A DNA stretch of 64,000 nt from an uncultured Thermodesulfobacteriota bacterium (GTDB lineage Bacteria > Desulfobacterota > DSWW01): positions 193,467 through 257,466 of the forward strand of contig CAYZMM010000003.1 of assembly GCA_964479535.1 (NCBI GenBank). Direction: 5' to 3'. This document shows positions 10,672 to 38,647 of the stretch, one piece after another. A program made the position numbers and the translations under genes. Position 1 is the stretch's first letter. Every line of letters begins with the position of its first letter. A model generated the notes under the pieces. The model had not been told where the DNA came from. It saw only the letters and a program-made list of their open reading frames with translations, and searched no databases.

Positions 10672-10703
10672 CAGTGCAGGAAACGTTGCACGACCCCAAG
10701 GAG

Positions 10704-16592: not shown

Positions 16593-17242
16593 TTCTCTTC
16601 GGAATCTTTCCCTACGCCGCGCTGACCGCTTTCGTGGTGGGACACCTCTACCGGTATGCAACCGACGCGGTGCACTGGAACGCCGGGTCGAGCGAGCTTC
16701 TCTCCAAGAAGAGCCTGGCCGCCGGCTCCTGGCTCTTCCACTGGGGCATGATCTTCGTACTGATCGGGCACGGCGGGGGCCTGCTGATCCCTCAAAGGGT
16801 CTACGATGCGGTCGGGATCGGGGCTGCCGCGCACATGCGGATCGCCTACTGGCTGGGCATCCCGATCGGGATCGTCTCCCTCGCCGGCATCGTTCTTCTT
16901 TCGTGCCGCCGTCTCTTCGCCAGGCGCGTCGCGGCCCAGACGAGCTTGAACGACGCCGCCACGCTGGCCCTTCTGTTCCTGGTCATCGGCGTCGGAACCT
17001 ACAACGTGTTCACCCACACCATGGTCCTCTACACCGTAGCTCCCTGGCTCCGAAGCATCCTCCTGCTGAATCCGGAGCCGGAGCTGATGCGATCGGCACC
17101 GGTCCTGTTCAAAGTGCACGTTCTCAGCGCATTCACCCTCTTCGGCTTCTGGCCCTTCAGCCGGCTGGTCCACGCCCTGAGCCTTCCCCTCACCTATCCC
17201 TTGCGGAGCTACATCGTTCTTCGGCGAAGAGGCCCGGCATGA
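16577..17242 (+). CDS. narI: respiratory nitrate reductase gamma subunit (di-heme b membrane anchor)
   Basis: MDWNLILFGIFPYAALTAFVVGHLYRY... with conserved His ligands. Embedded in a longer ORF-track frame; ATG 16577. Confidence 0.85.
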   Translation: MDWNLILFGIFPYAALTAFVVGHLYRYATDAVHWNAGSSELLSKKSLAAGSWLFHWGMIFVLIGHGGGLLIPQRVYDAVGIGAAAHMRIAYWLGIPIGIVSLAGIVLLSCRRLFARRVAAQTSLNDAATLALLFLVIGVGTYNVFTHTMVLYTVAPWLRSILLLNPEPELMRSAPVLFKVHVLSAFTLFGFWPFSRLVHALSLPLTYPLRSYIVLRRRGPA

Positions 17243-20107: not shown

Positions 20108-20547
20108 ACCTGATCGAGGTAACGTCGCACATCCTTCTCGACGAGAACGAAATCGACTTCGACTTCGTTCGTGCCTCCGGACCGGGCGGACAGAACGTGA
20201 ACAAGGTGGCCACGGCCGTCCAGCTTCGCTTCGATGTGGAGGCCTCGCCGTCGCTCCCCGAAGAGGTGCGTGAACGTTTGCGGACCGTCGCCGGCAACCG
20301 CATCAATGCCGACGGGATTCTCATCCTCGAGGCGAAGAGGTATCGCTCCCAGGCGCGCAACCGGGAAGATGCGATCCGGCGTCTCGTCGAGTTGATCCGG
20401 AAGGCGGCCAGGAAACCGGCGCCGCGTCGCAAGACCCGGCCGTCCGCCGCGGCCAGGGAACGCAGGCTGGAAGAGAAGAGGAGGCGCTCCCAGGTCAAAA
20501 GGAAGAGGCGTCCCCTTCGAGGAACGGCGGAAGACGACGTTCCTTGA
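20104..20547 (+). CDS. arfB: alternative ribosome-rescue factor / peptidyl-tRNA hydrolase ArfB
   Basis: GPGGQNVNKV GGQ motif, basic C-terminal tail. GTGA overlap with the radical SAM gene. Confidence 0.75.
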   Translation: MNLIEVTSHILLDENEIDFDFVRASGPGGQNVNKVATAVQLRFDVEASPSLPEEVRERLRTVAGNRINADGILILEAKRYRSQARNREDAIRRLVELIRKAARKPAPRRKTRPSAAARERRLEEKRRRSQVKRKRRPLRGTAEDDVP

Positions 20548-20573
20548 CGTTTTCGTACCATGTGCGACTTCCG

Positions 20574-21053
20574 CTATGCCTCCCCCGGAACCGGACCCTT
20601 CTCCGACGGGATGACCAGGACCGGACAGGGAGCGTGGCGGACCACCTTCTCGGCCACCGAGCCGAAGACGAACCGAGTGAAGCCGGTACGGCCCTTTGTC
20701 GCGATCACGATCAGGTCCACGCCCTCCTTCTCCGCGAACTCGACGATGTTCCCCGCCGGGTCCCCCTCCCTGACGATCGGCCGGATCGGACCGCGGTCCT
20801 CGCCCAGCCGCCGGACAAACCCCTCCAGCTCCTGGCCCGACTGGGTGACCAGATCCTGCTGGTACGTGTGGATGTTGAAGCCGGGTGCGTTCGGGGCGAT
20901 GTTCCCGGGAAAAGGGGGTACCGGGCTGACCACGTGCATGACGATGAGCTCGGTTTCCAGCGCATCCGCCAGATCCAGGGCCGTCCTCGCGGCGTCTTGC
21001 GAGGGTCCGCTGAAATCGGTGGGTGCGAGGATCTTCTTGACCGGCAACCTCAT
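20574..21053 (-). CDS. universal stress protein (UspA family)
   Basis: 159 aa. ...LIVMHVV... and C-terminal G-x2-G-x9-G-S ATP-binding-type motif. Confidence 0.85.
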   Translation of the reverse strand: MRLPVKKILAPTDFSGPSQDAARTALDLADALETELIVMHVVSPVPPFPGNIAPNAPGFNIHTYQQDLVTQSGQELEGFVRRLGEDRGPIRPIVREGDPAGNIVEFAEKEGVDLIVIATKGRTGFTRFVFGSVAEKVVRHAPCPVLVIPSEKGPVPGEA

Positions 21054-21393
21054 GGGTGATTCCCTTCCTTTCTGATTTCCGCATTCGGATTCTCTGTCTG
21101 CGTGCGCTGCTCTCGACCCTTCCTACATTGCAGAGGCTCGCAAAAGGCATGCCACGCCTGCGACGTGCAGGGTGCGCGGCAGGGCGCGCGGGCAAGCACG
21201 GAGTGTGCAGAAATGGTACAGCCCCGCTTCCCTCTGTGCCGATCCTTCACAGAACTCCGCCCCTCGGATCCCGCTGCCGGGGCCCCCGATGAGAAGCCCG
21301 TGTTCGTGGCCTGGCATAGGTCTTGCTGCCTCCACAGACTTGCCGCATGCGCAGGCAGGAGAACACATCGGAAAGGAGGGCTTGAAGTCGGAC

Positions 21394-22167
21394 ATGCGAA
21401 TCATGACCTTCAACATACGTTTCGAAAACGATCAGGACGGCCCGGATGCGTGGGTCCACCGAAGAGACGGGGTGCGGGACCTCATCAACCGTTACCGGCC
21501 CACCCTGCTCGGAACCCAGGAGGGGACGTGGGAACAGCTCCAGTGGCTCGACCGGGAGCTCGAGAACTACCGGATCCACGCACCGGGGCGGACCCGTGAC
21601 GCCGAAATGCAGTACCCTACCCTGCATTTCCGAGAAGACCTTCTGGAAGCGCAGGAGGGAGGGGAGTTCTGGCTGTCGAAGAACCCGGGCGTGCACCGCA
21701 GCAAGGACTGGGACAGCGCCTACGCGAGGATGGCGAGTTACGGGCGTTTCCGGAGCAAGGACTCCGAAGAACCCTTCTGGGTCGCGGTGACGCACCTCGA
21801 TCACGCCGGAGAGGAGGCCCGGCGCAACCAGGCGAGGATACTGCACGACTGGGTGCGCGAGAGGTCCGGGCCCGTCATCCTCATGGGGGACTTCAACGAC
21901 CGTCCCGGCTCGCCGGTGCACGCCCTTCTCACTTCCTCGGCAGGCGGTCTCACCGACACATGGAAGTTCCTGAGACGCGAGGACGGGCCGCACAGTTACA
22001 CGCAGCACGGCTTCGACGGAGTGCCGAGGAAGGGACGCATCGACTGGATCCTGGTCAGCTCCCACTTCCGTGTCGTGGACGCCCGGCTGATCACGGACAA
22101 CGCGGCCGGCCGCTACCCGTCCGATCATTTTCCCTATCTGGCGGAACTGGAGCCGAGGAATCCATGA
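21394..22167 (+). CDS. endonuclease/exonuclease/phosphatase (EEP) family protein
   Basis: MRIMTFNIRF..., ...GDFNDRP..., SDHFP motifs. AAGGAGGG RBS 13 nt upstream. Confidence 0.75.
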   Translation: MRIMTFNIRFENDQDGPDAWVHRRDGVRDLINRYRPTLLGTQEGTWEQLQWLDRELENYRIHAPGRTRDAEMQYPTLHFREDLLEAQEGGEFWLSKNPGVHRSKDWDSAYARMASYGRFRSKDSEEPFWVAVTHLDHAGEEARRNQARILHDWVRERSGPVILMGDFNDRPGSPVHALLTSSAGGLTDTWKFLRREDGPHSYTQHGFDGVPRKGRIDWILVSSHFRVVDARLITDNAAGRYPSDHFPYLAELEPRNP

Positions 22168-23306
22168 ATCCTTTCCGCCTTTCGTTTCGAACGGCCCTGC
22201 TGCTCCCGGTCCTGCTGGCAGCGGCTGCAGCCGGGTGCTCCCGCGAGGAGGGAACCTCCGAAGGCCCGGAGGGGCCGGCCGCGCCTGTGGAGACAGCCAG
22301 CGTGTCCCGGCAGGACCTGGAGGAGACCGTCCACGCCATCGGCACCCTCGAGGCCCTCGAGAACGTGATGGTCCGGCCGGAGGCAGCGGGCTACGTGGAC
22401 GCGGTTCATTTCGTGGAGGGCGACCCTGTTTCCAGGGGCCGGCTTCTGTTCACCATCGACAGCACGAAGATCGGCCTGCGGCTCCAGGCGAGGAAGGCCC
22501 TTCTCGAGGAGGCGAGGCTCCAGCTGGCAAGGGCGGAGCGCGGCTATGAGCGTCGGCAGGACCTGGTCGGAAAGCACCTCGTCTCCAAGGAAGCCCTGGA
22601 CCAGGCGAGGACCGAGTTCGAAACCGCCCGGGCGAGGGTGACCCGAATCGAGGCGGAAATCGAAGAGCTTCGCGACGCCTTCGAGGACACCCGGGTGAAG
22701 GCGCCCATCACCGGCGTGGTCGGCGAGCGGAGGGTCGACCCGGGAGACTTCGTTCACGTGGGGGACGACCTGGTGCCCCTGGTGAACACGGAGAAGATGA
22801 AGATCTCCTTCACCGTGCCGGAACGCTTCACGGGGAGGATCCAGGCCGGCCAGAATCTCCGGGTCTACTCCCCGGCCTTCCCGGACCGCCCCTTCAAAGG
22901 ATCCATTTACTTCGTGAGCCCCCAGATCCAGGAGGAGACGCGCAGCCTCCGGGTCAAAGGGTACGTGGAGAATCCGGAGGGGCTGCTGCGGCCCGGCGGG
23001 TTCGTCACCGCGGAGGTTGCCGTGGGGCTTCGAAAGGGGGCCCTGGTGATCCCGGAGGAGGCGCTCGTTCCGACCCGCGGCGGCTACATGCTCTTCGTGG
23101 TGGAGGACTCCCGGGCCAGGGGCCGTGAGGTGAAGACCGGCCTGCGAAAGCCGGGCATCGTCGAGATCCCCGGGGGGGTCCGCGCCGGAGAGACGGTGAT
23201 CCGGAGCGGGCACATTTCGGTCTTCGAGGGGGCCCGCATCCGGGTGGTGGAGCCGGCGGCCAAACAGGAGAGGGACGCTCCGGAAACCGAGCAGGAACGA
23301 AGATGA
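22164..23306 (+). CDS. RND efflux periplasmic adaptor (membrane fusion protein)
   Basis: Lipoprotein-like signal ending AAAAGC. Coiled-coil and beta-barrel MFP domains. ATGA overlap with the EEP gene. Confidence 0.85.
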   Translation: MNPFRLSFRTALLLPVLLAAAAAGCSREEGTSEGPEGPAAPVETASVSRQDLEETVHAIGTLEALENVMVRPEAAGYVDAVHFVEGDPVSRGRLLFTIDSTKIGLRLQARKALLEEARLQLARAERGYERRQDLVGKHLVSKEALDQARTEFETARARVTRIEAEIEELRDAFEDTRVKAPITGVVGERRVDPGDFVHVGDDLVPLVNTEKMKISFTVPERFTGRIQAGQNLRVYSPAFPDRPFKGSIYFVSPQIQEETRSLRVKGYVENPEGLLRPGGFVTAEVAVGLRKGALVIPEEALVPTRGGYMLFVVEDSRARGREVKTGLRKPGIVEIPGGVRAGETVIRSGHISVFEGARIRVVEPAAKQERDAPETEQERR

Positions 23307-24536
23307 TCTGGAACTTCTGTATCGGAAGGCCGGTCCTGACGGTGGTGATCTTCTTCGTCATCGCCATCTTCGGGATCTTCGGCTACCGGCAGCTTCCCGT
23401 GCGGGAATTCCCGGACGTGGAGTTCCCGGTGGTCAATGTGAGCGTGGTGCTGCCCGGCGCCGACCCGGAGGTGATCGAGACCGAGGTGGTGGAACCCCTC
23501 GAGGAGGAGCTGAACACCATCGAGGGGATCGAGGAGATCCAGTCCACCAGCCGGGAGGAAGTGGGCTCGGTCACGGTGGAGTTCGAACTGGACCGGGACA
23601 TCGACATCGCCGCGCAGGACGTGCGGGACCGGGTGAGCCGGGCCCGGCCGGAGATGGCCGACGACATCGAGGAGCCGATCATCCGGAAGATCGACCCGGA
23701 CGCACGGGCCGTCATGTGGGTGGCGGTCATGGGGAACGAGCGCTGGGACATGGTGCGGCTCAACGATTACGCGGAAAACGTCATGAAGGAACGCCTCGAG
23801 ACGATTCGCGGCGTGGGGCAGGTCCAGATCGGCGGGGAGCGGCGCTACGCGGTCCGGGTCCGCATCGACCCCCGGAAGCTGGCGGGCTACCGGCTCACGG
23901 TCCAGGACGTGGTCGACACGATCCGCCGCGAGAACGTGGACATCCCGTCCGGCCGCATCGAGAGCCGCATGCGGGAGTTCCTGGTCAAGACGGAGGGCCA
24001 GTTCTCCTCGGCCGCGCCCTTCAACGACCTGATCGTGGCCTACCGGTCCGGCTCTCCCGTGAGGATCTCCGACGTGGGCGAGGCGGTGGACGGCGTGGAG
24101 AACGAACGCACCGTCGCGCGGTTCGTGGGCAGGCCCTCCGTGGGGCTCGGCATCGTCAAGCAGTCGGACGCGAACATGGTCGAACTCGTGCAGGAAGTCC
24201 GGCAGACCCTGAAGGAGATTGCGGAGAACTTTCCCCCGGGTCCCCGACCCGGAAAATAAGCCCTTCCTGCTCCGGCGGACCGAGCCGGCCCTCGCCGGCC
24301 TGGAGAGGGCCTACCGTTTCGTTCTGAACAAGGCCCTCCGGTGGCGCTGGGCCACGGTCGCGATCGCGATCGCCGCGTTTGCCGCGGGCCTCTTTCTGAT
24401 TCAGTTTCTGGAAACGGAATTCACCCCGAGCGTGGACCGGGGGGAGTTCGTGGTGCGCTTCGAGGCGGTGGAGGGCGCCTCCCTGGAGGCGACCGACCGG
24501 TATGCGAGGACTTCCATCGCCCCGGCGAGATCGTAG
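23303..24536 (+). pseudogene. RND efflux permease (AcrB-like) remnant: internal ~170-aa deletion plus 3' truncation
   Basis: 23303..24259 matches AcrB aa ~1-335. A frame change near 24235 continues at AcrB ~505-590 (24219..24536). The ORF then ends in a fusion with the antisense TolC remnant. Confidence 0.7.
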
Positions 24537-25126
24537 TAGGCGGTCTCGATTTGTCCACCGATCTCCTGAGCGAAGCGCGTGTAGGCGTGCACCGCCTGCT
24601 TTGTCTGGTTCTCCGTGATCCGGAGGGCGGCGGTGTTGATCGGGACGCCGAAGTCACGCAACAGGGGCTGGGTGAGGTCGAGCATGAGAACGCTTCTGTA
24701 TTGCGGTCGCAGCGCATCCACCCTCGAGTTGTTCGTGGATCGGTTTGATTCGAAGGAAATGCCCGATTCGAGACCGAGGCGAAACCGCTTACGAAGGGCC
24801 GACGTACCGCCCACCTCCTGAAACTCCTCCACGTTGTCCTGGGCGAATGCGGATGCGGTCGGCGTCTCCAGGGCCTGGAAGGAAAAGGAGGCCTCCAGTC
24901 TCGGGTCGAAGGCCGCTGCTTCAACCTGTACGTTCTCCTCTTCCTTCGAAACGTTCAACTCCTGGATCTGCACGTCCAGGTTGTTCTCCATGCCCTCTAC
25001 GAGTGCGGTCCGTAGGGGCAGCAGGATTCCTTCTTCTTCCCCTTCGGGTGCCGCGGCCGGTCCCCCTTCCGTCAGAAGGCCGAGGGCGAGCACCCATGCC
25101 GCCGTCAGCAGTAGCCGTTTCCACAT
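24510..25126 (-). pseudogene. TolC/OprM-like outer-membrane efflux protein, N-terminal half only
   Basis: MWKRLLLTAAWVLALG signal, ...LPLRTALVEGMENNLDVQIQELNV... TolC repeat 1. It terminates where it meets the RND remnant. Confidence 0.6.
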
Positions 25127-25151
25127 CCCACACCTCCCCGCCCTGCTTCCG

Positions 25152-25967
25152 CTAAGCATCCCAGCGCGGCGCCCAGTCCGGGTCGATGAGACGTTCGCCC
25201 CTCGCCAGGCCGGACACCCGCCCCATCTCTTCGGCGGTCAGCTCGAAGTCGAAGATGGCGATGTTGCTCTCCCGGTGGGACGCCTTCGCCGCCTTCGGTA
25301 TGGCCGCGACCTTGTCCTGCTGCACGAGCCATCGAAGGGCGACCTGGACGGGGGACTTCCCGTATTTCTCACCCAGTTCCTTCAGTACGGGCTCTTCCAT
25401 CACCTTGCCGCGGGCGACGGGAGAGTATGCCGTGAGCAGGATGTCCTGTTTTCGCATGTGGGGAAGCAGCGTTTCCTGCGACAGGAAGGGGTGGCACTCC
25501 ACCTGGTTGCAGAAGATCCGCGTCAGGTTCTCCGCTTCCTGCAGCCGCGCCAGCGGGAAGTTGCTCACACCGATCCGTCGGGTCCTGCCCTCCTCCTTCA
25601 AGGCGACGAAAGCGCCCAGGGTCTCCTTCAGGGGGACGTCGTCCACGGGCCAGTGGATCAGCAGCAGGTCCACGTAATCGGTGCCCAGCCGCTTCAAACT
25701 CTCCTCGGACGTCCGCAGGACCGCATCCCGGGAAAGGTCCGTGTACCACACCTTCGTGGTCAGGAAGATCTCTTCCCTCTTCACGCCCGAACGCCGGATT
25801 CCCTCGCCCACCTGAGACTCGTTCTCATACGCCTGGGCCGTGTCGATGTGCCGGTATCCCAGCTCCAGGGCATGGGCCACGCCCTCCTCACACGACTTCC
25901 CGGAAAGCTCGAAGGTGCCGTAGCCGAGCACCGGCACCTTCTCTCCCTGTATCTCCGCATGCTTCAT
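25152..25967 (-). CDS. aldo/keto reductase
   Basis: 271 aa. GYRHIDTAQAYENE, IHWP, AKR family motifs. Confidence 0.85.
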   Translation of the reverse strand: MKHAEIQGEKVPVLGYGTFELSGKSCEEGVAHALELGYRHIDTAQAYENESQVGEGIRRSGVKREEIFLTTKVWYTDLSRDAVLRTSEESLKRLGTDYVDLLLIHWPVDDVPLKETLGAFVALKEEGRTRRIGVSNFPLARLQEAENLTRIFCNQVECHPFLSQETLLPHMRKQDILLTAYSPVARGKVMEEPVLKELGEKYGKSPVQVALRWLVQQDKVAAIPKAAKASHRESNIAIFDFELTAEEMGRVSGLARGERLIDPDWAPRWDA

Positions 25968-25969
25968 GT

Positions 25970-27112
25970 TCACTGCTCCTCCAGTTCGATCTTCAGTGAG
26001 AGGAATTCCGTGAGATCCTTCAGCGTGATGATCCCCGCCAGTTCGCCGTCGTCCACCACGACGAGACGGCCCCCGCCGGTACGGTGCATGAGCGAGAGGG
26101 CTTTCATGGCGTCCGCGTCCGGGTCGATGGTGTTGTCCGGGGAGCAGGGGGCCATGACGTCTCCCACCCGTTTTTCGGTCCGCTCCTCCTTCGGGACCTC
26201 CTTCACCTGTTTCGTGGAAACGCACCCCACGAGCCGGCTCGTGTCCTCCACGACCGGAAAGAGCTTGTAGTGGTGCTCGTAGATGTAGTCCTCCACCAGT
26301 TCCTGGACCGAAACGCCCGGCTGCACGGTCACCGGATCGGTCTTCATGAAGCGACGAACCGGCTCGCCCTCGAGGGCTCTTCGGACCAGCACCTGCTTGT
26401 ACGAACTCTTTGCGGCGCTCTGCACGAACATCCCGATGAGGAACCACCACATGCCTCCCACGAAGTTGCCTCCCAGCACCTGCACCACACCCATGATGAT
26501 CAGAAAGATCCCGAAGCCGGATCCGATCGAGGAGGAAATGCGGGTGGCCCAGCGCAGGTTTCCCTTGTAAGCCCATAGGGCGGACCGCAGGATACGCCCC
26601 CCGTCCAGCGGAAAGGCGGGTATGAGGTTGAATCCGGCGAGGATCAGGTTGATGAACGCCAGGTACCCCATCGTACCCTTCACCGCTTCGGGCCATTCGG
26701 CCTGTACCCCCACATGGAAGAAGCCGTAGAACACCCCGGCGATCAGAACGCTGGAAATCGGACCGGCCACCGACATGAGAAACTCCGCCTTGGGGGACGG
26801 CGGCTCTTCCCCCATTTCGGCCACGCCGCCGAAGATGAACAGCGTGATCCCTTTCATGGGAAGCCCCTGCTTCTTCGCCACGACCGAGTGTGAGAACTCG
26901 TGGAGGATGATCGAGAGGAAGAGCCCGATGGCGCCGGCAACGCCCATGATCCAGTACGTCCTGGTCGACAGGCCCTCGTACATCTGCGGAAAGACCCCGA
27001 GGGACAGGGACCAGACGATCAGGACCACGATGATGGTCCAGCTCAGGTCGATCTTCACCTCGAACCCGAAGAGGTTGAAGAGCTTGACACTCTTGCCGAA
27101 CATGATGATCAC
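25970..27112 (-). CDS. site-2 protease family (M50) zinc metalloprotease with tandem CBS domains
   Basis: HEFSH (HExxH) in a TM helix. C-terminal CBS pair. Confidence 0.8.
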   Translation of the reverse strand: MIIMFGKSVKLFNLFGFEVKIDLSWTIIVVLIVWSLSLGVFPQMYEGLSTRTYWIMGVAGAIGLFLSIILHEFSHSVVAKKQGLPMKGITLFIFGGVAEMGEEPPSPKAEFLMSVAGPISSVLIAGVFYGFFHVGVQAEWPEAVKGTMGYLAFINLILAGFNLIPAFPLDGGRILRSALWAYKGNLRWATRISSSIGSGFGIFLIIMGVVQVLGGNFVGGMWWFLIGMFVQSAAKSSYKQVLVRRALEGEPVRRFMKTDPVTVQPGVSVQELVEDYIYEHHYKLFPVVEDTSRLVGCVSTKQVKEVPKEERTEKRVGDVMAPCSPDNTIDPDADAMKALSLMHRTGGGRLVVVDDGELAGIITLKDLTEFLSLKIELEEQ

Positions 27113-27154
27113 CTCCCTCTGTCGTCTCGCCGTATCCGGCCGGCGGCGGGTGCC

Positions 27155-27751
27155 TCACGCCCCGCCCGGTGAGGGGCCGGCCTTCGCGAACTGCACGCCG
27201 GCTTGCTTCATCTTCCGAAGGGCTTCTTCACCGCCCTCGGCGGACACCGGACGCGTGGCTTCCGTCATCAGTTGCACCTCGAAGCCTTCCCTGCGAGCGT
27301 CCAGGACCGTCGCGAGCACGCACACGTCCTGGGCCAGCCCACCCACCCACAGCCGGCGGACGCCGTCCCGTCTCAACCGGTCGGCCAGGCCGGTCTGGTC
27401 GAAGGCCGAATTCTGATCCTGGTCGAAGCGCACCCCTTTCGTGACCTTGACGGTGCCTCCTGGAAGCGCAAGGTCGGGATGAAAGGCCGCCCCTTCCGTG
27501 TCCTGCAGGCAGTGGGGAGGCCACTCCCCTCCCTGTTCCGCGAAGCTCACATGGTCTTGCGGGTGCCAGTCCCGGGAAGCGTAGATGGGGATCCCGGTGC
27601 CGGCCGCCGCTTCGATGGAGCGATTCAGCACCGGGAGGATCCGGTCTCCCTCGTCGACGGCCAGCGCCCCGCCGGGACAGAAATCGACCTGCACGTCCAC
27701 GATGAGCAGGCCGTCCCCCCTCTCAAAGCGGTTCTGTTCTTCTCCACTCAT
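27155..27751 (-). CDS. isochorismatase-family hydrolase, nicotinamidase-like
   Basis: LLIVDVQVDFCPGGALAV..., catalytic Cys in ...DVCVLATVLDA.... Confidence 0.75.
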   Translation of the reverse strand: MSGEEQNRFERGDGLLIVDVQVDFCPGGALAVDEGDRILPVLNRSIEAAAGTGIPIYASRDWHPQDHVSFAEQGGEWPPHCLQDTEGAAFHPDLALPGGTVKVTKGVRFDQDQNSAFDQTGLADRLRRDGVRRLWVGGLAQDVCVLATVLDARREGFEVQLMTEATRPVSAEGGEEALRKMKQAGVQFAKAGPSPGGA

Positions 27752-28177
27752 TTCCCGGTCTCCTTTTCCGCCTTACGGACGGATTCGAGGGCGAGGGTTC
27801 CGTTCGACACGTACAAGGTTCCCTTGAGCACGAACCTCCGGGATGTCGCGTCGTCTCCCATCAGGCGCTGCGCCCCGCTCTCCTTTCCGAGTAGAAGGAG
27901 GCGCCGCCTGCCCAAGTCGTTCAGGATGTTCCACGCGCTGGTCGTTCCCGGATGAACCGCCGGGTCGACCCTGCGAAGCTCTTCGATGGCAAAAAGGGTT
28001 TCCTCCCCCTCGTACTCCAGGGTGTAGGCACCCCCCCGTGGTCTGTTGGAAAACGACGGTACCGGTGAGCTCCACCAGTACCGAAGACTGTGCTCGCGCC
28101 GAGTCCACGGACGCACACACGGCAATGAAGGCCGGGATGGCGACGACCGCTCCAACGAGCCAAACACTTTGCTTCAT
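27748..28177 (-). CDS. secreted hypothetical protein interrupted by frameshift at a homopolymer (C7 on + strand, 28031-28037)
   Basis: N-terminal part MKQSVWLVGAVVAIPAFIAVCAS...QQTTGG (frame of ORF 27773..28294). C-terminal part AYTLEYEGEE...KETGK (ORF 27748..28167). The junction is the G7/C7 run. Confidence 0.45.
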
Positions 28178-28399
28178 TTCTCCGTATCCTTCCGTATCCT
28201 TTTTACACGCATTCAAGGATGAGCAGCTTCTCGCCCCGGCGGCTGCCCGCCGTCGCTGCCCGGCGAGAAGTGCAAGCAGTATGCCACATCCCAATCAACG
28301 GAAACCTGAAGAACTCTTGTGCAAGGCGGCAAGGCCGGACCAGCGGGCGGGACCCTTCTGTACCGGAGGGGCACAAGCTGGCCACCGGCGGGCGAAGCC

Positions 28400-28416
28400 T
28401 GTGCCGAATGTGCACA
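28400..28416. promoter_or_regulatory. TGTGC-N7-GCACA site in divergent promoter region
   Basis: tgtgccgaatgtgcaca read directly. Confidence 0.5.
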
Positions 28417-28474
28417 TTCCGAACCCGAACCCTCCTCGGCACATTCCTCACGACAACGAAGGAGGACTTTATTC

Positions 28475-28940
28475 ATGGCTCTTACAGAACGACAAGACGA
28501 GTATGCGGCTGAGCTGTCCGCCGACCGTCTCCGCCGCAGATGCGACCCGGCCGGCTTTTCCTTTCAGAGCACGGAGGAACTGCAGGAGCACCAGGAGCGG
28601 CAACAGGCACTGTTCGAAGAGCTGAAGAACGAGGCGGAATCCAGGGGCTTCCGGCTCCTTCAGGCGCCCCAGGGCCTCGTCCTCGCCCCGGTACAGGACG
28701 GAAAGCCGGTCACTCCGGACGAATTCGAGAAGCTGGCCACCAGATTTGCCAACCTCGTGGATCTGGTCCGCGAGGCGAGCAAGAACGGGAACGGGCTCGT
28801 CGCGGCGGGCGATGTGGAACAGGCGATCAAGGAAGGTGTGTATCGGCTGAATCAGGCCGAAGAAAGGATGCAGCACCTGGTCGAGGAGGGCTCCATCATG
28901 ATCGACACCGAGGGAGATGCGCTGGGTCAGATCAGCCCTG
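28475..28940 (+). pseudogene. N-terminal ~150-aa remnant of a Lon-like (COG1067/LonB-type) ATP-dependent protease
   Basis: Starts at ATG 28475 with a GAAGGAGGA RBS. ...RLRRRCDPAGFSFQSTEELQE... resembles the N-terminus of Lon-like proteases from memory. The frame then reads antisense into ligA's 3' end. Confidence 0.45.
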
Positions 28941-28965
28941 TGAGGCGACGGACACCCGGGCCCTC

Positions 28966-31116
<2,151 letters not shown>

Positions 31117-31297
31117 TTAGGGCACATGCGGCCGGCTGTGCGAAAAGGTTTCGCCCGGAGAAGAACGCAGCGAACCGTCCGGAAACAAGGTCCTTGACGG
31201 GGTCCTTCCCTGTCGGAGCGGCGGTGGCAGGAAGATTGCAGCCTTGAGGAGGCATTGTGCGGCAGACCCCTGTGGACTACGAACGGAGGAGAAAGAG

Positions 31298-31840
31298 ATG
31301 AACCACTTCGGCACGGCACGAATCCTTTGGGCGGCCGCCCTGACCCTCCTGCTCTCGAACGGGGCCGGCTGCCTTTCGCCCATCTCCAAGTCCGTGCGAG
31401 AGAAGGTCGATCAGGAGATTTCCTTCGAAGAGATCCGCAACGCTCCGGAGGACTACGTGGGTGAGATGGTCCTGCTGGGAGGCGAGATCATCCAGACGCG
31501 GAACACGACGCAGGGGACCCTGTTCCTGGTGCTGCAGAAGGAGCTGGATTACAGAGGCAAGCCCCGCAAGGACGACCGGTCCGCGGGAAGGTTCATGGTG
31601 CAGGACCCCCGTTTTCTCGACCCTGCGATCTACAGCTCGAGAAGGCTGATCACCGTGGCCGGGAGGGTGATGGGGACGCAGACCCGGAAGCTGGACGAAC
31701 TGGATTACACCTACCCGGTCCTGCACGCGGAGGAGATTCACCTCTGGAGGGATGAACCGAAGAACCAGTACTACTTCTACCCGCAGCCGCGCTGGTACTT
31801 CTGGGGAGTGTCGGATTCCACCTTCCCGCCCTGGTATTGA
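31298..31840 (+). CDS. Slp-family outer-membrane lipoprotein
   Basis: Lipobox LSNGAGC. YVGEMVLLGGEI...YPVLHAEEIHLW...YYFYPQ matches the Slp family. GGAGGA RBS. Confidence 0.8.
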   Translation: MNHFGTARILWAAALTLLLSNGAGCLSPISKSVREKVDQEISFEEIRNAPEDYVGEMVLLGGEIIQTRNTTQGTLFLVLQKELDYRGKPRKDDRSAGRFMVQDPRFLDPAIYSSRRLITVAGRVMGTQTRKLDELDYTYPVLHAEEIHLWRDEPKNQYYFYPQPRWYFWGVSDSTFPPWY

Positions 31841-31908
31841 GTGTGCCCTCCGGCCGGCGCCTTCATCGAACAGACGGAACGGATCCGCAGACACAAAGGA
31901 AGACCGGC

Positions 31909-32368
31909 ATGGAAAAGGACCCGGTGTGCAACATGGAGGTGGAGCAGGACCGTCCCGGGCGCTGCCCCGAGTGCGGGACGGGTCAAGGGACTTCGCGCCG
32001 AAGGGCGGACCGTGGCCATGGCCGGCGACGGGATCAACGATGCTCCGGCCCTGGCGGAGGCCCACGTGGGAATCGCCATGGGCTCGGGAACGGACGTGAC
32101 GATCGAAAGCGCGGGGGTCACCCTGGTCGAGGGGGACCTGGCGAAGATCGTGCGGTCCCTCCGCCTGAGCCGTGCCGTGATGCGAAACATCCGGCAGAAC
32201 CTCTTCTTCGCCTTCGTCTACAACTCTCTCGGCGTTCCGGTGGCCGCAGGCGTCCTCTACCCCTTCTTCGGGATCCTTCTCAGCCCCATCATCGCCGCCG
32301 CGGCCATGAGCTTCAGCTCGGTCTCGGTGGTGTCGAACGCCCTGCGGTTGAAGAAGATCGGACTTTGA
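31909..32368 (+). pseudogene. heavy-metal P1B-type ATPase remnant: first ~23 aa joined out of frame to last ~125 aa
   Basis: [23 protein letters not shown] (metal-binding N-terminus) with an AAGGAAG RBS. Frame switch near 31983 into ...[36 protein letters not shown]... (hinge motif and last two TMs). About 600 aa missing. Confidence 0.65.
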
Positions 32369-32379
32369 CCGGAAGGCTC

Positions 32380-32765
32380 CTAACTTTCCGGTTCGGCGCG
32401 GAGCCGTGCCACGGCCCTCTCGGTGGCCTCCACCACGGTGAAGCGATAGCCCGAATCGACCACGTACTCCCCTTCCTTCGGGATACGGCGCAGGTGTTCG
32501 ATGAGCATGCCTCCCACGGTGCGCACCCGGTCCCCCGGCAGGTTGACGCCCAGGACGTCGTTCACTTCCGAGAGGGGCAGCCGCGCGTCGAGAAGATAGA
32601 CGTCCTCTTCGATCGTTTCGATGGACCGCTTTCTCCTGAAAGGTTGCTCTTCGAAGCGATAGACCACCTTCACCTCACCGACCACCACTTCCAGGGCGTC
32701 TTCCAGGGTCAACATGCCCACGGCGGAGCCGTATTCGTCGACCACGACCGCCGCCTGATCCGGAG
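32380..32765 (-). pseudogene. C-terminal remnant of a CorC/HlyC-family (DUF21-CBS-CorC_HlyC) transporter-associated protein
   Basis: ...VVVDEYGSAVGMLTLEDALEVVVGEV... followed by a CorC_HlyC domain. Upstream N-terminal part is absent, and its 5' end abuts the ACS fragment. Confidence 0.55.
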
Positions 32766-33695
32766 AAGACCGCCCAGGCGATCGGCGATGCGGCGGAAAA
32801 GCTCGGCAAGCCGGTGCTCGCATGCTTCATGGGCGAGGCTAACACCAAGGCCGGCGTCCGGAAGCTGACGGAAAGGAACGTGCCGAACTACGTCTCCCCG
32901 GAGCGTGCGGTCGCGGCTCTCAGGAAGATGTTCGATCAGCACCGTTGGCAGAAGGCCGCAGTGCCCGACGTAGAGGAGATGCCCGCCGACAAGGACCGCG
33001 TCGGCGGGGTCTTCCGCAGGGTCCGATCCGAAGGGCGCGTTCAGATGGGCGACACCGAGGCGAGGGAGGTGCTGGAGGCCTACGGAATCCCGCTCCCTCC
33101 TTCACGCCTTTGCCAGAACGCGACGGAGGCCGCTCGTTTCGCCGAGGAGATCGGCTACCCCGTGGTGATGAAGATCGCCTCCCCGGACATCCTGCACAAG
33201 ACGGACATAGGGGGCGTACGCATGAACCTGCAGAGCGGAAGCGACGTGGAAGACGCCTTCGACCTGCTCACCCTCCGGGCCCGGCGATACATGGAGGACG
33301 CCGAGGTCCGGGGCTGCCTCGTGCAGCGGCAGGTGAAGCAGGGCAAGGAGGTCATCATCGGCATGAACCGGGATCCTCAGTTCGGTCCTCTCGTCATGTT
33401 CGGGCTCGGCGGGATCTACGTGGAGGTCCTGAAGGACGTGGCGTTCCGCATCGCCCCGTACGCAAGAGAGGAGGCGGAGAGTCTCGTGCGGGAGATCCGC
33501 TCGTTCAACCTCCTGAAGGGGACCAGGGGAGAGGCCGGCTCGGACATTGCAGCGGTCGTCGACACCCTGCTCAAGGTCTCTCAGCTCGTGCAGGACTTTC
33601 CGGAAATCGTGGAGCTGGACATCAATCCATTGACTGTGTTCGAAGAGGAACAGGGGGTCGCGGCGATCGACGGGCGGCTCGTCCTGGATTCGTAG
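32763..33695 (+). pseudogene. C-terminal portion (tail of ligase-CoA domain + ATP-grasp beta domain) of an ADP-forming acetyl-CoA synthetase
   Basis: ...EKTAQAIGDAAEKLGKPVLACFMG... then EAREVLEAYGIPLP...GYPVVMKIASPDILHKTDIGGV...DINPLTVFEE.... The CoA-binding N-terminal half is absent. A GTG at 32814 could still express a beta-like product. Confidence 0.6.
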
Positions 33696-33740
33696 AAAGA
33701 CAACGTCGACATTCGGGGCGGCGGCCCCTGGGAGGAAGCG

Positions 33741-34821
33741 ATGGCCACGAAACTGTACGTGAGTTCCACGCAGGTCTCTTCCGGCAAGACGGCCCTGTGT
33801 GCCGGGCTGATGGGACGATTTCGTCGAGACGGGCTGCGGGCGGGCTACATGAAGCCGGTGAGCACGCAGACACGCATCTCACCGGAGCAGGGGATAGACG
33901 AAGACACGCGGTTCATGAAAGAAGCCTTCGACCTCTCCGAATCGTTGGAGGAGATGGCACCGGTCACCCTCACCGACAAGAAGCTTGCGGCCCTCCTCAC
34001 CGGCCGGAGCGAGGATTTCCGCGACCGGGTCCGCACCGCCCTCGGGTCGGTCGGCAGAGACAAGGAAGTGGTGGTGATCGAGGGAGGAGGCAGCCTGCGC
34101 GAGGGGTGGATCATCGACCTTGCGCCCCCCCCAGACCGCGAAGCCGCTCGAAACGCGAACCCTCGAAATCGTACCTTACAAGAACGATCTGCAGGTGGTG
34201 GACGATCTGATCACGGCCCGGATCCGGCTCGAGGACAGGCTCCTGGGAGCGGTGGTCAATTCCGTACCGAAGCAGCGAATGGGCTTTCTGGGCGACAAGG
34301 TACGACCGTACGTAGAGGAGAGGGACGTACCTGTTTTCGCCGTCCTTCCCCGGGAGCGGCTCCTGCTTTCGGTCAGCGTGACGGAGCTGGCGAAGGGCCT
34401 CGGCGGAAGGGTGCTCTGCTGCGAGAAGGGCATGGAGGAACTGGTCGAAAACGTGCTCGTGGGAGCCATGAGCGCGGACACCGCTCTGATCTACTTTCGA
34501 CGGAAGACGAACAAAGCACTCGTGACCGGAGGAGACCGCACCGACATCCAGCTCGCCGCCCTGGAAACCTCGACCCGTTGCCTGATTCTCACGGGGAACA
34601 GCCACCCGGACCTTCATGTCATGATGAAAGCGGAGGACTTGAACGTCCCCATCATCCTCACGCCCCACGATACCATGACCACCGTGGGTATCATGGAGCC
34701 GTATTTCGGTGCGTCCCGTTTTCACCAGGCCGGCAAGATGCGCCGTCTCGAGAAACTCTTCGAGAAGCACATGGACTTCGACAGGCTCTACGGCGCACTG
34801 GGGCTGTCCCCCGGAACCTGA
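33741..34821 (+). CDS. stand-alone Pta N-terminal-like protein (P-loop + DRTGG domain), frameshifted at a C8 run (34125-34132)
   Basis: MATKLYVSSTQVSSGKTALCAGL... then after the C8 run ...GGDRTDIQLAALETSTRCLILTGN.... No PTA_PTB catalytic domain. Confidence 0.55.
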
Positions 34822-34854
34822 CGCTCTCCCTGCAGGAGGGCCGCCGCGGCCAGG

Positions 34855-35046
34855 CTACTGCCCCGTCTCCTCCTTGAAGCTCTCGATGGCCGAGAGGGCC
34901 AGGTAGGTCCGGTCGTTCTTGAAGTGCCCTTTGACGACCAGGTAACCGTCCTCGACCTTCTCGACGGCCCCCAGATACGAGTCCACACCGGAGTGGGTGT
35001 AAATCCTCAGCGTCTTGCCCACGAAGCCCTTCATCAGCTCTTTCAT
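34855..35046 (-). CDS. small hypothetical protein (63 aa), or frameshifted C-terminus of the UPF0182 remnant
   Basis: Clean ORF MKELMKGFVGKTLRIYTHSGVDSYLGAVEKVEDGYLVVKGHFKNDRTYLALSAIESFKEETGQ with protein-like composition. Confidence 0.3.
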   Translation of the reverse strand: MKELMKGFVGKTLRIYTHSGVDSYLGAVEKVEDGYLVVKGHFKNDRTYLALSAIESFKEETGQ

Positions 35047-35059
35047 GTCCTGCCTGCTC

Positions 35060-36375
35060 CGACAGGCCCTCCAGGGCCGTCTGCAGTGCTTCGAGGGACC
35101 GGGAGGCCTCCTGAAAACGCTTCTCTCCCAGATGGCGCAGGTAGTTCTCGAAGGCCTCGTCGAAGGACTGTCCGTAGCTGAGCGTGTCCCCGTGCATGAC
35201 CGCCACCAGCCTCAGCTCCGGGTAGGCCGCCGTTTCCGCCTGGAGATAGATGGGCTCCACGTAGAGCAGTGTCTCCCCGATCGGAATGGCGAGCACGTTG
35301 CCTCGAATGACATTCGACCCCCTCTGATCCCAGAGGGTCAGCTGACCGGACAGAAAGCGGTCCTGGTCGATCTTCGTCTCCGCCTGCTGGGGCCCGAGGA
35401 CGCGCTTCTCCTTCGGGAACTTGTAGGCGAGGACGCGGCCGTACTGGCCCGGGTCGCACATGCCGGCGATCCAGCCGATCATGACCTGCCGGTTCTTCGG
35501 CGTGAAGGGCATCATCAGGACGAACTCCGGCTCGTCCGTGTCCGGCAGATCCCAGATCACGTAGTACGGTTCCACCGGCTGCACCGACTGGTAGTACTTC
35601 TCCGTCGCCCGGATCCAAAGGTCCTCCTGATTGTAGAAGACCGCCGGATCGGTCATGTGGTACTTCGCATAGGCCAGCCCCTGGATCAGCAGCATGTTGG
35701 CCGGGTATCGCACGTGCGCCTGCAGGTCGGCGGGCATCTCGGCCTTGTCACGGAACAGGTCCGGGAAGATCTTTCTCCAGACCCGTATGATCGGGTCCTC
35801 TTCATCGTAAACGTAAAGTTCGACCGTTCCGTTGTAGGCGTCGATCACCGCTTTCGCCGCATTTCGGATGTAATTGACCGTACCGAACCCCGAAAACCGT
35901 GCGGGCATCGCAAGCCCCCTCCGCTGTCGCCTCTGGGTCGCCTTGTAAGGCAGCGTCTGCGCTGTAGAGAACGGCTCGCTGTAGGGGTAGGGTTCAGGAA
36001 CTTCAGGATCGTCTCCCAGTTTCCGAGCCCCCAGAATCCTCCGATCACGCCTCCGGCGGCCACGGCGTAGCCTCTTGCGCGCCGCTTCCGCGCGTCCAGG
36101 GGAATCGTGAGGGTGGTAACCCAAAGAACGCCGAAGAGGGCTCCGGCGGTGGCGCAGGTGGCCTCCGCCCCGAGAACTTTCCAGAAACGCTCCGCGTACC
36201 CGAGGGAGGCGAACCACAAGACCTCGCCCCACACACTCAAGGCGGAAAAGAGCAGAAGGACCGCCGCTCCGGCGAGGATTCCGGCTGAAACGTAGAGGTT
36301 TTTTCCTCTTCTCAAGCCGGTCACTGCGAGAAGACCGGCCACGAACAACAGCACGACGAGAACGGCCAAGGACAT
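35060..36375 (-). pseudogene. UPF0182-family membrane protein with large internal deletion (N-terminal TM block + C-terminal ~300 aa)
   Basis: 36375 -> ~35975 gives MSLAVLVVLLF...GNWETILKFLNPTPT. The frame then changes into ...NYIRNAAKAVIDAYNGTVELYVYDE...FVLMMPFTPKNRQVMIGWIAGM...LLYVEPIYLQAE..., typical of the UPF0182 C-terminus. Family members are ~900-1000 aa. Confidence 0.5.
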
Positions 36376-36395
36376 ACTTCGGCTCCTTCCCCGGG

Positions 36396-36740
36396 CTAAC
36401 CTTTCTTCCCCCGGACGGCCTTCTTCCGCTTGCCGCTCTTCCTCAGCTTCTCGATCATCTCCTCCACCTCATTCTCGCCCTCCGCGTAGTAGCCTTCCTC
36501 CTCCGAATCGAGCTCCTTGAGAAGACGCCAGAACTCACCCACATGTTCCCGCTCTTCGTTCGCCACATCCACGAGCACCTCCCGGGCCAGGGGGTGATCC
36601 GTGGACTCCGCCGTCTGCACGTAAAGCTGAATCGCTTCGAATTCGGCGGCAATCATGAAGCGGATCGCTCGGATCAGTTCTTCCTGGGTGAGCTTTCGGT
36701 CGCTCTTCCTAACGACGAAGGGGGAGCTGAACTCTGGCAT
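36396..36740 (-). CDS. ferritin-like / rubrerythrin-like diiron domain protein
   Basis: 114 aa with E...ExxH-type pattern (EFEAIQLYVQ...EEREHVGEFW). Basic C-terminal tail. Confidence 0.55.
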   Translation of the reverse strand: MPEFSSPFVVRKSDRKLTQEELIRAIRFMIAAEFEAIQLYVQTAESTDHPLAREVLVDVANEEREHVGEFWRLLKELDSEEEGYYAEGENEVEEMIEKLRKSGKRKKAVRGKKG

Positions 36741-36901
36741 GTCGATTCTCCTCGATACGGTTTGCGTTTGTGTGGTATGAACAGCAAAAGCAGTGCCAAG
36801 GTCTGCAGTCGAGAGGACTCACCGAAATGCGCGTCCGGGGCCTGAGCCCGCGGTGCCCCGTGTCCCGTCCGTGCACACCAGGGCCCCTGGGAAAGGCGCC
36901 T

Positions 36902-36918
36902 TGTGCCGAACCTGCACA
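36902..36918. promoter_or_regulatory. TGTGC-N7-GCACA site (extended TTGTGC...GCACAA) in divergent promoter region
   Basis: ttgtgccgaacctgcacaa read directly. Confidence 0.5.
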
Positions 36919-37084
36919 ACTCGCTAGCATGCACGGGCCGGCCGGTCCAACGATACAGGGCTGGATGCGGACCGCCTCAACCCTGCCTGCCTGGCGGATG
37001 CTGGCACAAGCCTTGCTGCTTGTCGGGTCGAAAACCACCGCATCCAAGGGATGGAAGGACCGAACCCTGAAAAAGGAGCCGAGC

Positions 37085-38647
37085 ATGAGTACTGAGCACA
37101 CTCTGGCAAGTGTGGACGAGCTGAAAGACGGGGAAATGAAGGAAATCAAGGTCAGCGAGGACTTGACCATCCTCCTGGTCCGGATCGACCGTGAATTCCG
37201 CGCCTTTGGCGGGACCTGCCCGCATCACGGTGCTTCTCTGGCCGAAGGCGTTCTTCAGGGGAATCACATCCGCTGCCCCTGGCACCATGCCGTCTTCGAC
37301 GCGAAGACCGGTGCGGTCACGGAGGTTCCCTCCCTCGACTCGATCCCCAGGTTCGAGGTCCGAATCGACGGGGACAAGGTGGTCGTCATCCTTCCCGACG
37401 ACCCTCCCAGGGCGTGCACCCCGGAGATGGCCCGACCCGACTCCGGAAGGGACGATCGAACCTTCGTCATCCTCGGCACGGGCGCCGCCGGAATCACGGC
37501 AGCCGAGACCCTCCGGAGGGAGGGGTTCCAGGGAAAGGTCCTCATGCTCACCCGGGACGCCCACATGCCCTACGACCGAACGGACCTGAGCAAGCCCTAT
37601 CTGCGGAAACCCGACGCCCCGAAGCCCTTTCTGCGGCCGGAGGGATTCTACGAGAAGAACGGTATCGAGATCCTGACGAACCACGAGGTTACGCGCGTGC
37701 ACTCGAAGACCAGGACCCTCTCCCTCTGGAACGGCACGGAGTTGTCCTACGACCAGATCCTCCTCGCCACCGGGGCGGTGCCGAGGCGACTGGGGGTGCC
37801 AGGGGAGGGCTTGAAGAACGTTCTCGTGCTCCGGGATCTCGACGACTGCGAGGCGCTTCGTGCCGTGGCACAGGAGAAGGGCCGCGCTGTGGTGGTGGGT
37901 GCGAGCTTCATCGCCATGGAGGTGTGTGCCGCCCTGGTCGAACGGGGCCTGTCGGTCACGGTGGTGGCTCCGGAATCGGTCCCTTACGAAACCACCCTCG
38001 GCCCGGAGATCGGGCGGATGTACCGGAAAGCCCACGAAGAACGCGGAGTCGTCTTCCAGCTCGGAAACAAGGTGGACCGCTTCGAGGGGGACGGGAAGCT
38101 CTCCCGGGTGCTTCTGGAAGGCGGCGAGGGGATCGAGGCCGATCTCGCCGTGGTAGGCGTCGGCGTCGATCCCGTAACCGGTTATCTCGAGGGAGCGGGT
38201 CCTTCCGGGGGCGCGGGCCTGGAGGTAGACGGCCGACAGCTCGTGACGGAGGGCGTGTACGCGGCCGGGGACATCGCCAGGTTTCCGGACTGGCGCACCA
38301 AAGAGCCGATCCGCATCGAGCACTGGCGGGTGGCACAGCAGCAGGGTCAGGTGGCCGCCCGGAACATGGTCGGCCGCCCGAGCACGTTCCAGGGAGCGCC
38401 CTTCTTCTGGACGAACCAGTATTTCGTGATTACCTCCTATGTGGGTCATGCCGCCGAGTGGGAGGAGGTCGTCTTCGAAGGAGACCCGGCGGAACAGCGA
38501 TTCGTGGCCTTCTATGTGCGGGGCGGAAGGGTTCTGGCCGCGGCCGGGTGTGCGGAGGAGCGCAAGATGTGCCGGCTGTCCGAGTTGCTGGGGGCTCCCG
38601 AAGCACCGAAGCTGTCCGGGATCCAGGACGAACTCCGCAAATCCTAG
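37085..38647 (+). CDS. Rieske [2Fe-2S] domain fused to FAD/NAD(P)H pyridine-nucleotide-disulfide oxidoreductase (AIF/ferredoxin-reductase-like)
   Basis: CPHHG...CPWHH Rieske motif. GTGAAG and GxGxxG dinucleotide folds. AAGGAG RBS. Confidence 0.8.
   Translation: MSTEHTLASVDELKDGEMKEIKVSEDLTILLVRIDREFRAFGGTCPHHGASLAEGVLQGNHIRCPWHHAVFDAKTGAVTEVPSLDSIPRFEVRIDGDKVVVILPDDPPRACTPEMARPDSGRDDRTFVILGTGAAGITAAETLRREGFQGKVLMLTRDAHMPYDRTDLSKPYLRKPDAPKPFLRPEGFYEKNGIEILTNHEVTRVHSKTRTLSLWNGTELSYDQILLATGAVPRRLGVPGEGLKNVLVLRDLDDCEALRAVAQEKGRAVVVGASFIAMEVCAALVERGLSVTVVAPESVPYETTLGPEIGRMYRKAHEERGVVFQLGNKVDRFEGDGKLSRVLLEGGEGIEADLAVVGVGVDPVTGYLEGAGPSGGAGLEVDGRQLVTEGVYAAGDIARFPDWRTKEPIRIEHWRVAQQQGQVAARNMVGRPSTFQGAPFFWTNQYFVITSYVGHAAEWEEVVFEGDPAEQRFVAFYVRGGRVLAAAGCAEERKMCRLSELLGAPEAPKLSGIQDELRKS

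Follow-up and report, generated by a model that had tools for sequence, protein, structure and literature searches.

Clustered gene remnants, probably of recent origin, in a 13-kb segment from an uncultured bacterium of the Thermodesulfobacteriota

Bacterial pseudogenes are reportedly removed by deletional bias, a view said to have been set out by Mira, Ochman and Moran in 2001 and by Kuo and Ochman in 2010, and spontaneous large deletions without homology are said to have been recovered by Nilsson et al. in 2005 during experimental evolution of Salmonella. Reductive genome evolution is a feature of host-restricted bacteria, among them Mycobacterium leprae, Sodalis, and early-stage symbionts, and replication-based complex rearrangements, by fork stalling and template switching or microhomology-mediated break-induced replication (FoSTeS/MMBIR) and in chromoanasynthesis, have been described in eukaryotes. 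The locus described here lies in a stretch of 64,000 nucleotides (the window) from an uncultured Thermodesulfobacteriota bacterium (assembly GCA_964479535.1, contig CAYZMM010000003.1, positions 193,467 to 257,466 of the forward strand), where a damaged segment of 13 kb (23.3–36.4 kb) comprises seven deletion-truncated genes and two frameshifted genes. We consider it likely that this segment of an uncultivated bacterium with a GC content of ~64% was caught shortly after a bout of gene loss, and that it carries genuine, recent, and clustered pseudogene remnants left by nine deletions and two slips.

Gene remnants in the damaged segment

Genes were typed by matches to Pfam and NCBIfam profiles, together with alignment to full-length homologues. 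In seven of them, encoding an RND permease, a TolC-like protein, a Lon-like protease, a copper P-type (P1B) ATPase, CorC, an ADP-forming acyl-CoA synthetase (ACS), and a UPF0182 protein, the remnants cover only part of the family profile or of the full-length homologue (Table 1). The deletion junctions number nine, with ~0.35–2.2 kb missing at each and ~10 kb lost in total, and the ancestral segment would therefore have measured ~23 kb. They include one deletion in the interior of the RND gene, one across the convergent 3' ends of the RND and TolC-like genes, three in the Lon-like gene, one in the interior of the P1B ATPase gene, one across the divergent 5' ends of the CorC and ACS genes, and one in the interior of the UPF0182 gene, so that each is confined to a single gene or bridges two neighbouring gene ends. 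Junctions were placed at ~24236, 24504, 28937, 31979, 32755, and 35990. Within each gene the pieces have kept their order and orientation, and the GC content, which is ~64% across the whole window, is uniform within the damaged region (0.61–0.67).

The gene damage is clustered beyond chance. Nine of the 16 genes inside the region are damaged, compared with none of the 25 assessable genes outside it (Fisher p = 3e-5, where the limits of the region were set post hoc, after inspection of the data). The outside set was drawn from 30 further open reading frames (ORFs) scanned in the other 51 kb of the window, 25 of which have an assessable Pfam match, and all 25 span their Pfam profiles end to end.

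Table 1. Positions of the remnants, junctions, and intact genes in and beside the damaged segment (window coordinates).
Feature	Position	Strand	Basis
Membrane-fusion protein (MFP, HlyD-type), efflux operon	22164..23306	+	Intact; HlyD_D23 2-214/214
RND permease N-piece, 311 codons, native start	23303..24235	+	ACR_tran 2-313/1021; NF033617 3-311/1009
Junction 1, RND-internal deletion of ~172 codons, out of frame	24236..24242	.	Sequence, frames, profile coordinates
RND middle piece (profile ~485-579 of ~1020), without native start	24243..24503	+	ACR_tran 500-579; NF033617 496-576
Junction 2, tail-to-tail RND/TolC fusion	24504..24505	.	Sequence and frames; alignment to homologue
TolC-like outer-membrane factor, N-terminal half	24506..25159	-	OEP 3-119/187; residues 13-216 of 424-aa homologue P0277
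Aldo/keto reductase, M50-CBS protease, isochorismatase	25152-27751	-	All full length
Small secreted-protein gene, signal peptide present, frameshifted	27748..28177	-	Three-frame translation, homopolymer list
Lon-like remnant, three collinear in-frame pieces	28475..28936	+	LonC 4fwd residues 421-501; three matched stretches in 800-830-aa homologues
Junction and spacer, Lon protease domain deleted	28937..28965	.	Sequence
LigA, NAD-dependent DNA ligase, intact amid the decayed stretch	28966..30987	-	All LigA domains full length; residues 5-670 align to relatives
Slp	31298-31840	+	Intact
P1B (copper) ATPase head, native start and 23 codons, CxxC metal-binding head	31909..31977	+	Sequence
P1B ATPase tail, last ~128 codons, out of frame with head	31982..32368	+	CopA NF007952 706-832/838; frames
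CorC/CNNM, C-terminal ~124 codons	32380..32754	-	CorC_HlyC 2-79/81 and CBS tail; NF011675 163-276/292
CorC/ACS junction, head-to-head fusion	32755..32756	.	Sequence
ADP-forming ACS, C-terminal ~312 codons (~389-698/698)	32757..33695	+	ATP-grasp_5 2-221/221; NF045493 408-698/698; TIGR02717 406-445/447
AAA_26 and DRTGG (Pta-N-terminal-like), full length, frameshifted	33741..34821	+	AAA_26 and DRTGG in two frames; sequence
DUF6897	34855-35046	-	Intact
UPF0182 C-piece, ~316 codons, out of frame with N-piece	35042..35989	-	L009 residues 618-963, 58% identity; NF002707 716-962/983
UPF0182 N-piece, 128 codons, native start	35992..36375	-	L009 residues 48-144; UPF0182 6-63/770

The start of the RND gene is overlapped by the stop codon of the MFP gene. 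Its N-terminal piece reads past the end of homology to a stop codon at 24259; at the break point, the relative P0008 continues from FPPG into IRYTV, where the window has FPPG followed by PRPGK and the stop. The middle piece is out of frame with the N-terminal piece, and the two RND junctions are 265 nt apart. At the second of these, ~450 C-terminal RND codons and ~210 C-terminal TolC codons have been lost (at least 2.0 kb), and the RND remnant is predicted to lack most of the transmembrane helices. The TolC-like gene has kept its native start, where it overlaps the stop codon of the aldo/keto reductase gene, and its ORF continues to 24401 via antisense RND sequence. An orthologous MFP-RND operon on a 123-kb contig of 55% GC (L165, JGI Ga0374083_0767742, positions 8956–11503) is also decayed: its MFP gene is split into two ORFs in different frames, and its RND ORF, of 500 aa, consists of the N-terminal ~310 residues and the C-terminal ~190 fused in frame, with the N-terminal piece being 65% identical to that of the window. 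Many further RND ORFs of 250–550 aa, on contigs of 0.1–4 Mb, are present in the list of RND homologues, among them P0028, P0065, P0068, P0072, P0081, P0094, P0104, and P0125 on contigs of 0.2–4 Mb. Truncated RND genes seem to be common in assembled genomes, and the search may favour hits of query-like length.

The Lon-like remnant is comprised of pieces A (28475–28585), B (28586–28729), and C (28730–28936), which a full HMMER scan for homologues placed at residues ~3–30, ~145–198, and ~500–577 of an ~810–830-aa protease, with reference-dependent limits of 3–29, 124/144–198, and 503–575, respectively. Two internal in-frame deletions of ~115 and ~300 codons have occurred in this gene, in addition to the deletion of the ~240-codon C-terminal protease domain, and the missing reference residues ~31–144 presumably held the Walker A motif, as judged from the family. 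The ribosome-binding site (AAGGAGGA) and start codon are intact, and the ORF continues to 29077 through antisense LigA. All three junctions fall within 460 nt of retained sequence, in which the pieces measure ~110–210 nt, and the deletion of the protease domain ends ~30 nt from the LigA stop codon. At the deletion between B and C, a K-L dipeptide is found at both end points in four of the five full-length references (P0128 has an upstream E-L), a pattern compatible with a putative short microhomology, AAGCTG.

In the P1B ATPase gene, ~680 codons are deleted at ~31978–31981. At the CorC/ACS junction, both 5' ends and the intergenic region, ~2 kb, are gone in one deletion. The CorC remnant begins inside the second CBS motif and has lost its native start, and the ACS remnant, whose native 5' end is likewise lost, contains the tail of the alpha domain and the ATP-grasp domain, with homology reaching 19 codons upstream of the first possible start codon, up to antisense CorC. 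A natural split ACS beta subunit or a stand-alone short form of CorC was considered and rejected, as the homology of both starts in mid-domain and not at a domain boundary with its own start. The UPF0182 remnants correspond to residues 1–144 and 618–963 of a 968-aa homologue, and the junction at 35989–35992 removes 473 codons. There is no stop codon in the UPF0182 C-terminal piece at ~35040, where the homologues end, and ~117 more codons follow to 34691; this read-through (34691–35041, - strand) runs, in another frame, across DUF6897 and the 3' end of the DRTGG gene, and reflects either a lost stop codon or natural C-terminal variation.

Both frameshifts are located in homopolymer runs, a G7 run (C7 on the + strand) at 28031–28037 in the secreted-protein gene and a C8 run at 34125–34132 in the AAA_26/DRTGG gene. 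Ten runs of at least 7 nt are present in the window, and the two that break a gene are both inside the damaged region. Homopolymer error of a sequencing type throughout the window was rejected, with NarH (C8), MFP (G7), aldehyde dehydrogenase (ALDH), and PrkA all reading through their own runs.

The original prediction, which was made from the sequence alone, had described a 13-kb cluster of remnants with two homopolymer frameshifts. Both the cluster and the frameshifts were recovered; the "at least eight" remnants that it counted are in fact seven truncated genes. Its junction positions lie within 1–15 nt of ours and its deletion sizes agree with the profiles and homologues, as do the truncations it assigned to the RND, TolC-like, P1B, CorC, ACS, and UPF0182 genes, and sizing of the deletions against full-length homologues confirmed that all seven genes are partial. 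The Lon-like gene had been read as the first ~150 aa only; comparison with the solved LonC structure 4fwd and the 800–830-aa homologues revealed instead an in-frame mosaic of three pieces, from which the C-terminal ~240 aa are missing. An intact start and ribosome-binding site, claimed for each remnant, are found for the RND N-terminal piece, TolC, Lon, the P1B head, and the UPF0182 N-terminal piece, whereas the CorC and ACS starts are lost. Nor does every remnant have a start of its own, given that the RND middle piece, the P1B tail, and the UPF0182 C-terminal piece are out of frame with their heads.

The flanking ORFs that were scanned include NarGHJ with a major facilitator superfamily (MFS) transporter, a radical SAM protein, an OpuA-type transporter, phosphoglycerate mutase, an FAD oxidase, a Rieske-FAD reductase, sigma factors, aconitase, an MscS-type channel, ALDH, SpoVR/DUF444/PrkA, thiolase, and a short-chain dehydrogenase/reductase. 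The respiratory nitrate reductase cluster is complete (10809–18564, + strand), with a NarG-like protein of 1272 aa, NarH, and NarJ followed by the MFS transporter, and the PrkA-DUF444-SpoVR stress-kinase triad looks intact (54129–59127, - strand). Thus, the organism does not appear to be generally degenerate. Long ORFs with coding-like GC3 and no Pfam match are located at 209–2620 (-, 803 aa), 4778–5326 (+, 182 aa), and 62002–63852 (-, 616 aa). A rubrerythrin/EncFtn-like ferritin-fold protein of 114 aa is encoded at 36396–36740 (-), 20 nt upstream of the UPF0182 start, with no encapsulin shell gene nearby.

Junctions in a second assembly

Three Logan contigs of the SRA run SRR7048227 (9.6 kb) are 100% identical to window positions 26822–29464, 31086–32215, and 32232–38088, and pass unbranched through six of the nine junctions (three Lon, P1B, CorC/ACS, and UPF0182) and through both frameshifts. 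Logan contigs are built for each run from a k=31 de Bruijn graph, with singleton k-mers dropped and Minia3 simplification applied, without scaffolding (PMC12424806). As k-mers seen once are dropped, every 31-mer across those six junctions and both frameshifts must have been read at least twice. The contigs end at 26822, 29464, 31086, 32215/32232, and 38088, none of which is a junction, and it follows that there is no competing path of comparable depth at those junctions. Mis-joining by the assembler is therefore improbable at six of the nine junctions, and clonal chimeric library molecules are an unlikely source of them. No sign of a chimeric assembly, either as a shift in composition or origin or as a repeat at a joint, was observed; the GC content is uniform, and the joined pieces come from the same gene in the same order.

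Logan look-ups with the RND N-terminal piece, two TolC start variants, the aldo/keto reductase, and the MFP returned no contig over the two RND/TolC junctions, and the upstream Logan contig (L164) covers 20464–21688 only. RND and aldo/keto reductase k-mers that are common across the community may account for the fragmentation there. Two of the matching contigs, L083 and L002, end 16 nt apart (32216–32231) in the conserved tail of the P-type ATPase and not at a deletion junction, pointing to a minor polymorphism or to k-mers that other members of the community also carry. With respect to phase-variable contingency loci, a homopolymer tract lies inside the coding region at both frame changes, and the G7 and C8 runs are each of a single length in the Logan contigs.

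Age and origin of the deletions

The ten homologous remnant pieces amount to 1,802 codons (5.4 kb), in which there is no in-frame stop codon and no small indel. When only stop-creating changes in the actual codons are considered, neutral divergence since inactivation is limited to ~1.7% substitutions per site (95% upper bound), and this bound becomes 0.4–0.7% if small indels arise at 5–10% of the substitution rate. The remnants are also as conserved as the intact LigA, with identities to L009 of 58% for UPF0182 versus 59% for LigA, and to L003 of 64% for both RND and LigA. Taken together, the absence of stop codons from 1,802 codons and the LigA-like conservation support recent deletion, as the original prediction had argued in preference to slow decay.

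Full-length orthologues are encoded near LigA in these relatives: L009 has a UPF0182 protein of 968 aa, and L003 has an MFP-RND pair and a 904-aa P1B ATPase ORF. Full-length homologues of the TolC-like (424 aa) and Lon-like (800–830 aa) proteins also exist. The relatives are distant, the UPF0182 and RND orthologues being 57–64% identical and the P1B, TolC, and Lon-like references 39–49%. A search by LigA gave no close relative, with the best at 64% among GTDB species representatives and 62% among JGI metagenomes, and only scraps of gene order are shared. The closest LigA relatives (L003–L013, 58–64%) are metagenome-assembled genomes labelled Planctomycetales, Syntrophales, Gemmatimonadaceae, Anaerolineales, and Phycisphaerae, several of them from SRP141376. 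These taxon labels are probably unreliable and the lineage is probably poorly sampled.

We infer that the deletions arose in vivo, and likewise their mechanism and the number of separate events. In the most likely scheme, a block of accessory genes (efflux, metal homeostasis, Lon-like protease, and acyl-CoA synthetase) would have become dispensable, and nine deletions would have formed in it at very short homologies, by RecA-independent illegitimate recombination or by replication template switching or end joining, with single-base slips in two homopolymer runs breaking two further genes. The deletions that survived would be those that spared the needed neighbours, namely LigA, the M50 protease, the aldo/keto reductase, the isochorismatase, and Slp. 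That the deletions fall within genes or gene ends, one of them halting close to the LigA stop codon, is consistent with a filtering of random deletions by purifying selection. The remnants are probably non-functional pseudogene fragments, because the catalytic cores are missing and most pieces are out of frame or lack a start, and they would look clean because there has been too little time for point decay.

An origin from a mobile element or genomic island was rejected. No transposase, integrase, or insertion sequence (IS) domain was found in any scanned ORF, and no tRNA, Rfam family, group II intron, or tandem repeat was detected, with other repeats only at chance level; the absence of IS elements, integrases, and repeats from the junctions had been noted in the original prediction and is upheld by these scans. 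An explanation by a replication terminus or dif site is not supported: no sequence resembling dif was found, and the shift in GC skew near 24–25 kb is weak and follows the gene strand. A common junction motif was rejected, as CCGG, which looked frequent at the joints, is not enriched there (p = 0.24). Promoter and terminator scans were at chance level.

Several observations weigh against recent loss by separate deletions as the full account. With the best LigA relative at 62–64%, ancestral junction sequences and microhomologies are not directly readable. The two RND/TolC junctions have no support from a second assembly, and the exact RND and TolC proteins are found only in the NCBI source. The Logan contigs probably share reads with the source assembly, and so represent an independent assembler and not independent data; moreover, support for the junctions is at the level of assemblies, and clonal library artefacts, though unlikely, could give the same picture. 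Finally, nine large deletions without point lesions in dead DNA are not what would be expected from an E. coli-like neutral mutation spectrum, as known from mutation-accumulation rates. Consequently, one addition to the scheme is needed, which could be selection for loss in a large population, a raised local deletion rate, or a complex event.

The last of these leads to a different reading, in which one or a few complex events, such as a single replication or repair accident, made most or all of the junctions with order and orientation kept, either by serial forward template switching or by end joining of several breaks in one ~23-kb segment. Such an accident would explain why every lesion is confined to 13 kb, with the remaining 51 kb of the window undamaged, why the three Lon junctions are only ~110–210 nt apart and the two RND junctions 265 nt apart, and why 5.4 kb of dead sequence shows no point decay, and it would need no repeats or mobile elements. 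However, there is no direct sign of simultaneity. A dead gene tolerates more deletions, and several hits in the same gene would be no surprise in any case. In large populations, serial deletions can be driven to fixation by selection faster than neutral point changes, and the homopolymer frameshifts are a different type of lesion that points to ordinary relaxed selection. We therefore regard a complex origin of the whole cluster as unlikely; for at least the Lon and RND genes, it is plausible given the spacing of the junctions. Similarly, there is only a small chance that the junctions are the scar of one local catastrophe or brief hyper-deletion process, an order-preserving, deletion-only bacterial counterpart of chromoanasynthesis in which selection kept only an outcome that spared LigA and the other needed genes.

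It is less probable again that the junctions are artefacts, made in vitro as chimeras from whole-genome or long-range amplification or made by assembly, with the real genes being full length. The contig is metagenome-derived, all source proteins are singletons in a collection of 5.8 billion proteins, and the sequence is known from only one SRA run; in addition, the retained pieces (70–270 nt) are of read-like size, and the RND/TolC junctions lack a second assembly. Against this, six of the junctions and the two frameshifts recur at 100% identity, unbranched, in the contigs of a second assembler that uses no scaffolding, each junction k-mer was read two or more times with no full-length path in competition, and no repeats of k length or more are present at the joints. 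The pieces are collinear, in the same orientation, and uniform in composition, and the remaining window assembles into intact genes. Chimeras from multiple displacement amplification are mostly inverted and non-clonal, which also counts against an artefact. The chimeric or mis-joined assembly that the original prediction had allowed for is thus disfavoured by the identity of the Logan contigs through six of the nine junctions. Finally, it is highly improbable that the segment belongs to a recent segmental duplication, with its genes left to decay because of intact paralogues elsewhere, which would account for the interleaving of damaged and intact genes in one block, as the 64-kb window contains no paralogue of any remnant and a word-based search of the same protein collection, which includes this assembly, returned no near-identical longer copy (the Lon remnant matched only itself, the next best TolC match was 46% identical, and the best non-self RND match 76%), so that with no intact paralogue detectable the genes appear truly lost and not redundant.

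Comparison with described systems

The ten remnant pieces are clean ORFs that annotation pipelines would call RND permease, copper ATPase, acetyl-CoA synthetase, and so on. Mislabelled in this way, they would inflate metabolic and resistance predictions for the lineage, and flagging them as pseudogenes is advised. Recent loss by deletion would make the region a rare snapshot of gene loss before point decay, useful for understanding how bacterial genomes shed DNA, and if reads confirmed every junction and showed them to be all-or-none, they would indicate that bacterial deletions can form in clusters and possibly at the same time.

Metagenome mis-assemblies and amplification chimeras share with this locus the abrupt joins inside genes of a metagenome-derived contig. 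They differ in that the joins here recur when a second assembler is used, are free of competing paths and of repeats at the joints, and are collinear within each gene. The complex rearrangements of FoSTeS/MMBIR resemble the locus in having several junctions in a small region, short retained segments, and preserved order, but are usually accompanied by duplications, triplications, and inversions, whereas only deletions are found here and simultaneity would be hypothetical. As in the Salmonella experiments, the deletions are consistent with illegitimate recombination with little or no homology at the junctions, tolerated or favoured when the genes are unused; those deletions were reportedly single and much larger (1–200 kb), in contrast to the many sub-gene deletions in one segment observed here.

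The high local density of remnants, interleaved with retained essential genes, is reminiscent of reductive genomes, in which, however, the whole genome decays, with abundant point lesions and IS elements, whereas the other 51 kb of this window is intact and without IS elements. The closest likeness is to pseudogenes shaped by deletional bias, where genes that can be dispensed with are first inactivated and then lose sequence to deletions, with no part played by mobile elements or long repeats, and the remnants stay recognisable by homology; typical examples contain frameshifts, stop codons, and many small deletions, in contrast to the deletions of 0.35–2.2 kb and the absence of point lesions from 5.4 kb at this locus. 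The kind of event is thus an ordinary one, the formation of bacterial pseudogene remnants by deletional bias. Mildly unusual are its density, with nine deletions and two frameshifts in 13 kb, its confinement to one segment of an otherwise intact window, and the lack of point decay, and the clustering together with this lack of decay could reflect a burst of deletion.

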